A stretch of 32,681 nt of DNA, taken from assembly GCA_043746935.1 (NCBI GenBank), contig JAYTQD010000015.1, positions 1 to 32,681 on the forward strand. The letters are read 5' to 3'. The stretch comes from Acidobacteriaceae bacterium. GTDB taxonomy: Bacteria; Acidobacteriota; Terriglobia; Terriglobales; Acidobacteriaceae. Both the position numbers and the translations under genes were made by a program. The first letter of the stretch is position 1; every line of letters begins with the position of its first letter. Below the pieces are notes generated by a model, which worked only from the letters and a program-made list of their open reading frames with translations, had not been told where the DNA came from and did not search any database. Shown one piece after another: positions 5,782 through 7,453 of the stretch.

Positions 5782-6591
5782 GTGGCGATTGCGGCGGTCC
5801 AACATGTGAGGCGGATGCGGGGCGGGGCGCAAGGGCATTTGATGCGCTGCTCCGATGGGCATTTTTACGTGGTAAAGTTCCGGAATAACCCGCAGCATTT
5901 GCGGGTACTGGCGAATGAGCTGCTGGCGACGCGGTTGGCGGAGCGCGTGGGGTTGCCAGTACCGGTGGTGGAAGTAATAGAAGTGAGCGATTGGCTGGTG
6001 GAGCATACGCCGGAGTTGAATATTCAACTGGCGAGGGAGACGATTCATTGTCAGGCGGGGTTGCAGTTTGGGTCGCGGTATGTGGTGGCGCCGCCTTGGG
6101 ATGGACAGGTTTTGGATTACTTGCCGGTGGAGATGTTGGGACGGGTCCGGAACTTGGAAGCGTTTGCCGGAATTTTAGCGTTGGATAAGTGGACGGGGAA
6201 TGCGAATGGGAGGCAGGCGGCGTTTTGGCGGAAGATGCGGGAGCGGAAGTATACGGCTACGTTTATCGACCAGGGGTATTGTTTTAATGCTGGGGAGTGG
6301 TCGTTTCCGGATAATCCGCTGCGCGGGGTTTATATGCGCAATGAAGTGTATGCCGGGGTGACGGGGTGGGATTCGTTTGAGCCGTGGTTGTCACGGATTG
6401 AGGCGATGGAACGTGATGTGATTTGGTCAGTGGCGGGGGAGATCCCTCCGGAGTGGTATGGCGGAGATTGGGGCGCGCTGGAGAAATTGGCTGAGGCGTT
6501 GATGGAGCGGCAGGATTGGGTGCGGGGATTGATAGAAGCGTTTCGGATTTCGCCAAGGAGACCGTTTCCGAATTGGAAGGCAGCGAACTAG
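5782..6591 (+). CDS. Short HipA-like (PI3/4-kinase fold) Ser/Thr kinase family protein with a non-canonical catalytic loop
   Basis: AVQHVRRMRGGAQGHLMRCSDGHFYVVKFRNNPQ..RVLANELLATRLAERVGLPVP matches the N-terminal pattern of short HipA-family kinases as I recall it. LDKWTGNANGRQAAF aligns with the HipA catalytic loop and FIDQGYCF with the Mg-binding Asp segment. Start is uncertain: GTG 5782 is chosen because homologues begin before the RGG segment; alternatives are GTG 5725 and ATG 5815. The 5584-5710 part of the track ORF overlaps terL. Confidence 0.7.
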   Translation: MAIAAVQHVRRMRGGAQGHLMRCSDGHFYVVKFRNNPQHLRVLANELLATRLAERVGLPVPVVEVIEVSDWLVEHTPELNIQLARETIHCQAGLQFGSRYVVAPPWDGQVLDYLPVEMLGRVRNLEAFAGILALDKWTGNANGRQAAFWRKMRERKYTATFIDQGYCFNAGEWSFPDNPLRGVYMRNEVYAGVTGWDSFEPWLSRIEAMERDVIWSVAGEIPPEWYGGDWGALEKLAEALMERQDWVRGLIEAFRISPRRPFPNWKAAN

Positions 6592-7394
6592 TGACCGAGA
6601 AGCGACAATGCGAGTTCTTCCTGCTGCGGTATGTACCGGATGCGGTGAAGGACGAGTTCGTCAACATTGGCGTGGTGATGCTGGAGGCCGATGCGGGGTT
6701 TGCGGATATCCGGCTGACGCGGGACTGGCGACGGGTGCGATGTTTGGACCCGGGCGTGGATGTGGAGATGCTGGAGGCGATGGAGCGCGAGGTACGGGCG
6801 CGGCTGGCAGACGTGACGGACCGGGACTTGTTGATGCGCAAGTTGGAGGAGTCGTTGTCGAATACAGTGCAGCTTTCAACGGCGAAAGGGTGTTTGACAG
6901 ACGATCCGCGGAAAGAGATTGAGGAGTTGGCGTCGATGTACCTGGAGACGAAACGAGCTGGGGAAAAGCGCGAGGCCGGCGGGCGGCAGCGGTTGTTGGG
7001 CGGGATGCGGATGGCGTTTGAGCAGGCTGGGGTGTGGGCGCACCTTCGGCAAGGTATTGCAGTTTCGCAGTACACGAATAAAGGTGATCCGCTGAAGATT
7101 GATTGCGGGTACCGGCCGAACGGGGTGGTCAAGTTGTTTCAGGCAGTGTCGTTGGCGACAGACGTAAATGCAGCGAAGGTGCTGGCGTTTAGCTATCCGC
7201 GAATTGCGGAAGGGATTGAACGCGACGAAAAGGCCAATACGGCTCTTACCGCAGTGGTGGAGGACGAGTTGGATCGAGGCGATGAGGGCATTCAGTTTGC
7301 GTTAGCGATTATGGAACAGAGCAAGATTCGAATTGTTGTAGTGAGTGAGATGCCAGGGATTGCGGAACTGGCGCGGAAGGAATTGCGGTTATAA
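6591..7394 (+). CDS. DUF3037 domain protein with ~140-aa C-terminal extension
   Basis: CEFFLLRYVPDAVKDEFVNIGVVMLE is the characteristic DUF3037 N-terminal signature (x-LRYVPD-x3-EF-x-N-[IV]-GVV). The GTG start at 6591 shares its G with the kinase stop (TAGTG), implying translational coupling. The track ORF start at 6516 lies inside the kinase gene. Confidence 0.75.
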   Translation: MTEKRQCEFFLLRYVPDAVKDEFVNIGVVMLEADAGFADIRLTRDWRRVRCLDPGVDVEMLEAMEREVRARLADVTDRDLLMRKLEESLSNTVQLSTAKGCLTDDPRKEIEELASMYLETKRAGEKREAGGRQRLLGGMRMAFEQAGVWAHLRQGIAVSQYTNKGDPLKIDCGYRPNGVVKLFQAVSLATDVNAAKVLAFSYPRIAEGIERDEKANTALTAVVEDELDRGDEGIQFALAIMEQSKIRIVVVSEMPGIAELARKELRL

Positions 7395-7420
7395 GCAGCA
7401 AGTCTGGGTTGAGCGAGTAG

Positions 7421-7453
7421 ACGCCACGGTTCACTTCCGTGGCGTTTTCATTT
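7421..7453 (+). terminator. Rho-independent terminator closing the kinase/DUF3037 cassette
   Basis: Perfect 9-bp stem ACGCCACGG (7421-7429) / CCGTGGCGT (7437-7445), 7-nt loop, then TTTCATTT, 27 nt after the DUF3037 stop. Confidence 0.75.

Follow-up and report, generated by a model that had tools for sequence, protein, structure and literature searches.

What is a pair of kinase-fold and DUF3037 genes doing between the terminase and portal genes of a phage-like element, and has such a pair been described before? The question is raised by contig JAYTQD010000015.1 of an Acidobacteriaceae bacterium (assembly GCA_043746935.1), a stretch of 32,681 nucleotides (nt) that was analysed at its full length and is referred to below as the window. 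Its phage-like block contains a gap of about 1.8 kb between the large terminase gene (terL) and the portal gene. As the initial annotation had noted, this gap is filled by two co-oriented genes, which are present in the DNA and in the open reading frame map and are supported by Pfam and phrog matches. Sequence comparison identifies the cassette as a distant, diverged homologue of the published HipAD pair (DS-6, PDC-M66). The initial annotation had stated that no published description of the pair was known. This is wrong, because the pair is already listed in PADLOC as PDC-M66, homologues have been validated as DS-6/HipAD and in Retron-Sda1, and the window proteins are homologous to them. By analogy with these systems, the cassette is most likely an effector/neutraliser pair protecting or stabilising the lysogen. 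The features of the region, all on the forward strand, are as follows.

About 4148-5710 (+): large terminase gene terL (Terminase_6C 3e-06, phrog_2 1e-29), located 5' of the kinase gene in all related loci
5711-5781 (+): 71-nt spacer between terL and the kinase gene, without a terminator, in which a block that some relatives conserve survives only as a remnant (GTCATA...TAAGAT)
5782-6591 (+): gene 1, HipA_2-family kinase-fold gene, 269 amino acids (aa), GTG start, TAG stop
6591-7394 (+): gene 2, DUF3037 partner gene, 267 aa, GTG start, TAA stop
7421-7453 (+): intrinsic-terminator-like hairpin and U-tract between the DUF3037 gene and the portal gene
7497-8702 (+): portal gene, 401 aa, ATG at 7497 (Phage_portal 2.5e-45, phrog_2662/phrog_12), equal in length to the portal of the related locus L007

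Homology of the cassette to HipAD and other systems

Gene 1 contains all the HipA-family peptide blocks quoted in the initial annotation. It matches the Pfam family HipA_2 (PF20613) at residues 10-101 only (43.1 bits, cut-off 27, E=4e-11), the PADLOC model PDC-M66A at model positions 30-116 of 270 (27 bits, 5e-07) and phrog_3162 (6e-15). The score against HipA_C is 18.6 bits, below the cut-off of 30.5. The assignment of gene 2 to DUF3037 is borne out by its profile match (PF11236, 84.8 bits, E=7e-24); in addition, it matches PDC-M66B over the full length (1.4e-15) and phrog_5137. NCBIfam gave no match for the kinase or the DUF3037 protein, and a PDB sequence search with the single kinase and partner proteins gave none either. 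The numbers of database homologues (5802 for DUF3037 and about 8000 for the kinase), together with purifying selection (ratio of nonsynonymous to synonymous substitution rates, dN/dS, of 0.06-0.37), indicate that the two genes are not a chance occurrence.

The kinase stop and the DUF3037 start have one base in common (TAGTG at 6589-6593), as the initial annotation had observed, yet this overlap is unique to the window; the two genes are separated by 4-190 nt in the relatives. A Shine-Dalgarno-like GGAAGG is located 10 nt 5' of the DUF3037 gene start. The terminator proposed at the end of the pair is composed of a hairpin, ACGCCACGG-loop-CCGUGGCGU, at 7421-7445 (nine G/C-rich pairs), followed by UUUCAUUU, and the 76-nt terminator region folds with -25.4 kcal/mol (z=-2.6 against shuffles). 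A consensus terminator scan did not list the hairpin at 7421-7453, in our reading probably because a G-U/A-U extension of the stem would consume part of the T tract. The GC content of the cassette (0.58-0.60) is the same as that of its surroundings. The GC skew peaks within the cassette (0.40 at 6001-7000, against 0.17-0.31 in the adjacent kilobases).

The closest characterised counterpart is the E. coli system DS-6, which was validated as anti-phage and renamed HipAD by DeWeirdt, Mahoney & Laub (PMC13092281), who note that HipAD was found independently by Brenes & Laub 2025. DS-6A (WP_000389051.1) is a HipA-related kinase, and DS-6B (WP_000210934.1) is composed of DUF3037 and DUF1829, the latter recognised only by HHpred with a probability of 0.78 (supplement of PMC13092281). 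The D139A mutant of DS-6A loses defence, and AlphaFold3 predicts contacts between DS-6A and DS-6B as well as between DS-6B and DNA (PMC13092281). In BLASTP, the window kinase shares 27% identity with DS-6A over 180 aa (E=1e-14) and the window partner shares 23% identity with DS-6B over 190 aa (E=6e-11). Moreover, the profile of the window partner family aligns with DS-6B with 94% probability in hhalign.

The two pairs agree in several respects. The HipA_2 kinase gene comes first, the stop and start overlap (by 4 nt in DS-6 according to the supplement of PMC13092281, and by 1 nt in the window), the DUF3037 partner has about 270 aa and a second C-terminal domain, both pairs are phage-borne, and the ATP-binding Lys and Mg-binding Asp are conserved. 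The identity of only 23-27% sets them apart. In addition, DS-6A matches HipA_2 over its full length at 1e-76, whereas the window kinase does so in its N-terminal third only; D139 of DS-6A, essential for defence, corresponds to Asn142 in the window; and the partner in the window has no Pfam match to DUF1829. Close homologues of DS-6A and DS-6B are also found in the Klebsiella phage Kp4864-1 (OK490416.1, 4423-6816), where they come directly after the gene of a CI-like repressor with helix-turn-helix (HTH) and S24 domains, in the immunity region and thus in another niche than the terL-portal slot; the OK490416.1 record itself carries no annotation.

Both window proteins match PDC-M66 (PDLC04766/04767, PADLOC-DB 2.0.0) in the correct order, the partner over its full length and with the same score as the validated DS-6B; on both PDC-M66 models, the DS-6 proteins score about equal to the window proteins. 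The kinase match is weak and partial, and an automatic PADLOC call might fail for this reason. PDC-M66 is itself only a bioinformatic candidate definition. Payne et al. 2024 do not mention M66 or HipA.

The HipA_2/DUF3037 pairing recurs in Retron-Sda1. Across genomes, DUF3037 and HipA-like genes show a strong association, and the HipA-like/DUF3037 genes of the Sda1 operon defend on their own; deletion of the kinase gene abolishes defence, while deletion of the DUF3037 gene is toxic (PMC12548924). The Sda1 pair, compared here by description and not by sequence, has the same two domains, and its stand-alone defence with a kinase toxin and a DUF3037 neutraliser resembles the role proposed for the window pair. 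The difference lies in the setting: Sda1 occurs with a type III retron reverse transcriptase and a non-coding RNA in Bacteroidota and Pseudomonadota, whereas the window is without a retron.

The similarity to E. coli HipBA is confined to the kinase fold family and the positions of the ATP-binding Lys and the Mg-binding Asp. In agreement with the initial annotation, according to which the partner is neither HipB-like nor upstream, there is no HTH gene between terL and the window kinase and no upstream antitoxin gene. Unlike HipA, which has 440 residues, the window kinase has 269 aa and is without the HipA N-terminal domains; its equivalents of D309 and N314 are Asn and Ala, and the gene order is reversed.

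Active-site residues of the kinase and domains of the partner

The kinase retains K32, E46, D135, N140 and D163. Of these, K32 (YVVKF), D135 and D163 (FIDQG) are invariant across 55 diverse family members. In profile alignments, K32 aligns with the VAIK-like Lys region of HipA and D163 with D179 of CtkA. The Asp of FIDQG, which the initial annotation had proposed for mutation, is the equivalent of the Mg-binding Asp (HipA D332, CtkA D179). The profile-based PDB matches to HipA and CtkA are sub-threshold and were used for register, not for membership. Foldseek returned PI4KIIalpha, HipA and CtkA as the top matches of the AlphaFold2 kinase model, none of them significant.

Another residue of the quoted LDKWTGNANGR block had been overlooked. 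The column of the catalytic base is occupied by N142 in the window kinase, LDKWTGNANGRQ (DKWTGNANGRQ), and three independent alignments agree on this placement. The MAFFT family alignment puts N142 at D139 of DS-6A, the Asp of FDKWILNADRT, whose exchange for Ala kills DS-6 defence. The profile-profile alignment with E. coli HipA puts it at D309 of ATDGHAKN, with a probability of only 26-37% and a clean register, and the profile alignment with H. pylori CtkA puts it at D155 of GNFDRHNGN.

D309 of HipA is the catalytic base. Its exchange for Gln is said to have abolished kinase activity and toxicity in work by Correia and colleagues from 2006, and PDB entry 3tpt is HipA(D309Q). D135 was considered as an alternative catalytic base in a D-x4-N motif and was rejected, since the CtkA alignment makes it a separate conserved residue (CtkA D148).

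The occupancy of this column differs strongly with relatedness. In 118 close homologues it is Asn in 117, Asp in one and no other residue, and in 118 family representatives at 50% clustering it is Asp in 97, Asn in 19 and Gly in two. Among the 25 tabulated sequences from the terL-portal slot (near-duplicates included), Asn is found in 19. A nested sub-clade in the same slot (L014-L018) has Asp, with more divergent partners, as have the more distantly related kinases of L026, L030 (P0245) and L031 (P0250), which lie outside the slot and have no DUF3037 neighbour. The Asn/Asp change requires a single G/A transition. It is the Asp sub-clade that has the most divergent DUF3037 partners (35-41% identity).

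Judging from these alignments, Asn at the catalytic base is a derived, conserved state, tied mainly to this phage lineage. An active kinase cannot be assumed, because N142 replaces the Asp that DS-6 needs. Asn142 may mark a pseudokinase or an attenuated toxin, or the catalytic-base Asp may be dispensable in this family. We consider attenuated or altered catalysis more likely than complete loss: the kinase as a whole, its ATP-binding Lys and Mg-binding Asp included, is under the strongest constraint in the element.

The partner is modelled by AlphaFold2 with a mean predicted local distance difference test (pLDDT) score of 83, and consists of the DUF3037 domain (about 1-120) and an alpha/beta domain (about 125-267). 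The C-terminal domain (pLDDT about 90) has a putative PD-(D/E)xK-like fold in the model. Foldseek matches of the partner in the PDB are weak (E 3e-3 to 0.1) and mostly PD-(D/E)xK nuclease folds; they include Cdn1, NucS/EndoMS, BstEII, XisH, Mus81, Can2/Card1 and Avs4, the last presumably matched via its nuclease domain. Among viral models, phage proteins of full length match best (E about 1e-10 to 1e-11); further viral matches are a DUF1828 protein and several with a restriction enzyme or endonuclease annotation. A role of the partner as a real nuclease effector is unsupported: the putative nuclease columns vary (E144 is E/S/A/T/K, K181 is K/R/H/E, and D171 is Gln in DS-6B). Because these candidate catalytic columns are not conserved, we read the modelled C-terminal domain as a putative binding module rather than an active nuclease.

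The related locus L018, on an IMG/VR contig, carries an extra 258-aa gene between the kinase and DUF3037 genes (8931-9707, +). Its product has an N-terminal DUF3037 domain (1.9e-12) fused to a LexA/CI-type Peptidase_S24 domain (8e-31). In this fusion, DUF3037 would occupy the position that the DNA-binding domain has in a cleavable repressor, which hints at a role for DUF3037, in line with the DNA contact predicted for DS-6B.

Conservation of the pair and its surroundings

Related loci were gathered from metagenomes, GTDB genomes and IMG/VR, and 23 of them have a kinase at least 60% identical to that of the window and enough flanking sequence (individual loci are referred to by L numbers). A contig scan with peptide patterns gave three loci only, as the patterns were too specific. 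All 23 loci share the same gene order: terL, kinase, DUF3037, portal, putative protease/scaffold genes, major capsid protein (MCP) and adaptor. This neighbourhood supports a reading of the two genes as a conserved unit. Two of the 23 loci are located on contigs of 1.0 Mb and 5.25 Mb, and the names of the homologues are Terriglobales or Acidobacteriaceae. Identities to the window proteins in the related loci, and substitution rates by the Nei-Gojobori method, are listed below.

Kinase: identity 61-87%; dN 0.08-0.16; dN/dS 0.06-0.17
MCP: identity 70-86%; dN 0.09-0.21; dN/dS 0.07-0.16
Portal: identity 59-86%
terL: identity 50-73%
DUF3037 partner: identity 35-78%; dN 0.16-0.51; dN/dS 0.11-0.37

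The dN of the kinase is the lowest in every comparison, below that of the MCP and the portal. Defence morons are expected to come and go among related phages. The initial annotation had called the cassette a classic moron, but its slot does not differ among the 23 loci, and no gene of the element evolves more slowly than the kinase. The pair is an old fixture of the phage lineage rather than a recent insertion. Of the usual marks of a moron, the cassette has its own terminator; patchy presence and atypical composition are not observed.

About 12 of 21 relatives have a GC-rich hairpin and a T-tract directly after the DUF3037 gene. The stem sequences are unrelated, and this recurrence with different stems makes termination 3' of the DUF3037 gene a conserved feature. 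The spacer between terL and the kinase gene contains a GTCACA-N21-TAAGAT block in four relatives, which may be a promoter. The positions of this candidate promoter are as follows.

L004: 9040-9100
L009: 9020-9080
L010: 4360-4420
L013: 9910-9970
Window: 5740-5776 (remnant)

A GGACAGCCGAGGGCGGCTGTCC hairpin just 5' of the kinase start is common to L009, L010 and L012.

The terL-portal slot still acts as an accessory region in the relatives. L008 has an insertion between terL and the kinase gene (7720-8781) that encodes an IS110-family transposase (DEDD_Tnp_IS110 and Transposase_20). In L001, a 23S_rRNA_IVP four-helix-bundle gene lies between the kinase and DUF3037 genes (9597-9911), and the insertion before the portal gene (11035-12990) encodes a 651-aa beta-helix protein whose hydrophobic N-terminus resembles a signal peptide (by eye) and which is similar to the 982-aa protein of the window (g982). 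Moreover, four relatives encode a protein of 137-152 aa between DUF3037 and portal, with several apparently membrane-spanning segments and no family match, which could be another exclusion gene. Its positions are as follows.

L008: 10807-11220
L009: 10807-11220
L013: 11703-12161
L010: 6212-6658

Kinases of the same subfamily, 49-57% identical and without DUF3037, also occur alone at the following positions.

L026: 9992-10798
L030: 10001-11155
L031: 10001-11443 and 15165-16421

These solo kinases are found in mobile regions rich in integrase, relaxase or toxin/antitoxin genes. Two of them, P0245 (384 aa) and P0250 (480 aa), are extended at the N- or C-terminus.

The part of the window beyond about 16.5 kb contains genes for 2-oxoacid dehydrogenase E2 and E3, lipoate ligase, hemB, a histidine kinase, MutS2 and DnaG. 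As these ordinary chromosomal genes adjoin it, the phage-like block is part of a bacterial chromosome. The left end of L023 encodes a CI-like repressor (18-683; HTH_3 and a weak Peptidase_S24), as expected of a temperate phage, and a dual-specificity protein phosphatase (1374-1913; DSPc 1.2e-09, HCAAGVHR motif), for which a role as counterpart to the kinase is conceivable. Small holin-like membrane proteins are encoded 3' of the cluster in the window and in L003 (by eye; no family match). The idea of a domesticated cluster resembling a gene transfer agent is not supported, given the CI-like repressor of L023 and the holin-like proteins, with the visible flanks being too short to settle the point.

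Two translationally coupled genes with a GTGA overlap (4-1110 and 1107-4055, +) lie 5' of terL in the window. The second encodes the 982-aa protein, which by eye seems to have a Sec signal peptide and has a He_PIG immunoglobulin domain at its C-terminus; relatives have beta-helix proteins of 700-2200 aa at this gene position. Tail fibres would not be expected to carry a signal peptide. The chromosomal part of the window contains further toxin-like genes: a Fic/DOC protein adjoins an OGG-like glycosylase-fold protein (22072-23383, -), and a 198-aa PemK/MazF-like protein is encoded 5' of dnaG (29193-29789, +).

Proposed function and rival explanations

The kinase-based, toxin/antitoxin-like anti-phage role put forward in the initial annotation remains the best reading, by homology to DS-6/HipAD (PMC13092281) and Sda1 (PMC12548924). 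Specifically, the cassette would be a diverged HipAD homologue, a self-contained unit with its own terminator that serves a temperate phage-like element as a toxin/neutraliser defence against superinfection, and we give this version about an even chance of being right. By analogy, the HipA_2 kinase-fold protein would be a growth-arresting effector. The DUF3037 protein, produced from the same transcript by coupled translation, would bind and neutralise the effector, and may also bind DNA via its DUF3037 or nuclease-fold domains. If another phage infected the cell, or if the element were lost, the balance would be upset and the effector freed; the freed effector would stop host growth, and the invader would be excluded or the loss punished. 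This proposal builds on the homology to tested systems, the gene order, the conserved neighbourhood, the purifying selection and the terminator, from which we infer, by analogy, the toxin/neutraliser relation, the trigger and the target. Kinase toxicity, neutralisation and phage protection themselves are known only for the E. coli and Sda1 homologues (PMC13092281, PMC12548924).

Several observations weigh against a defence role of this kind. The Pfam and PADLOC models cover the N-terminal third of the kinase only, Ala147 stands at the equivalent of HipA N314, and the AlphaFold2 kinase model, with a pLDDT of 58 (26-35 in the catalytic loop), is too poor to judge the active site. The Asp that DS-6 requires at D139 is N142 in the window kinase, and Asn is nearly universal in the close homologues. 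No sigma-70-like promoter was found in 3900-9500, which bears on expression in the lysogen. The enterobacterial copy of HipAD adjoins cI, a lysogen-expressed position, whereas the window copy lies in the structural block. Finally, the pair is never absent among the related loci, and conservation of its kinase exceeds that of the capsid protein.

Some of these observations would fit a co-opted pair, in which a pseudokinase (ATP-binding, with little or no phosphotransfer) and the DUF3037 protein serve the life cycle of the phage itself and not defence; as a switch or checkpoint, they could for example control the expression of late genes, packaging, or the choice between lysis and lysogeny. The catalytic-base Asn, placed by three independent alignments at DS-6A D139, HipA D309 and CtkA D155, is shared by the window, 117 of 118 close homologues and 19 of 25 terL-portal sequences, with Asp prevailing in the family representatives (97 of 118) and in the kinases of L026, L030 and L031 outside the slot. 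The position fixed in 23 of 23 loci, the lowest dN of the element and the location within the structural block, not in an immunity region, point in the same direction. However, L014-L018 keep Asp in the same slot, which implies that both states work there, and K32, E46, N140 and D163 are kept as in a working nucleotide-dependent enzyme. The terminator between the pair and the portal gene, together with the nearby insertions, is the behaviour of an accessory slot, and kinases with an Asp-to-Asn exchange can keep residual activity, as in HER3. Moreover, we know of no morphogenetic role for either the HipA_2 or the DUF3037 family. On balance, co-option is unlikely.

A pure addiction or stabilisation module, a toxin/antitoxin that arrests or kills cells losing the prophage without excluding phages, is quite unlikely. 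The toxicity of the DUF3037 deletion in the Sda1 operon is toxin/antitoxin behaviour, a faster-evolving partner next to a constrained effector fits toxin/antitoxin co-evolution, and fixation throughout the lineage is expected of a selfish stabiliser. Against this, both tested homologues protect against phages, stabilisation matters less to an integrated prophage than to a plasmid, the catalytic Asn speaks against a potent toxin, and nothing indicates an unstable partner protein. Highly improbable is an essential accessory of head assembly or packaging that acts as a direct structural or enzymatic part. The evidence for it is positional, namely the location between terL and portal in every relative and the co-orientation with structural genes. 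It is countered by homologues that act as stand-alone defence in E. coli without phage structural genes, by the enterobacterial phage copy next to cI, by the terminator 3' of the pair, by the solo kinases of the same subfamily in non-phage mobile elements, and by the PHROG families of the pair, which have no assigned function.

Compared with the described systems, the window pair is unusual in its missing catalytic Asp, its position in the structural block and its fixation throughout the lineage together with an extremely constrained kinase. A more speculative and rather doubtful possibility is that in this abundant lineage of acidobacterial phages an ancestral HipAD-type defence pair has become a fixed core module, its kinase being the most constrained protein of the element despite the loss of the canonical catalytic Asp, and in which a pseudokinase or non-canonical kinase and a putatively DNA-binding DUF3037 partner would act in phage-intrinsic regulation. 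The toggling between Asp and Asn in the clade could represent switches between a toxic and a non-toxic state. Should none of this hold, the cassette would be one more prophage-borne member of a known defence family.

Validation of the HipA_2/DUF3037 pairing as anti-phage dates only from 2025-2026. The family is very common in soil Acidobacteriota, with thousands of homologues and 2930 representatives at 50% clustering. There, the pair belongs permanently to the structural region of a phage and is not a swappable island gene. The natural Asp-to-Asn exchange at the position that kills DS-6, combined with strong purifying selection, offers a ready-made test of whether phosphotransfer is needed.

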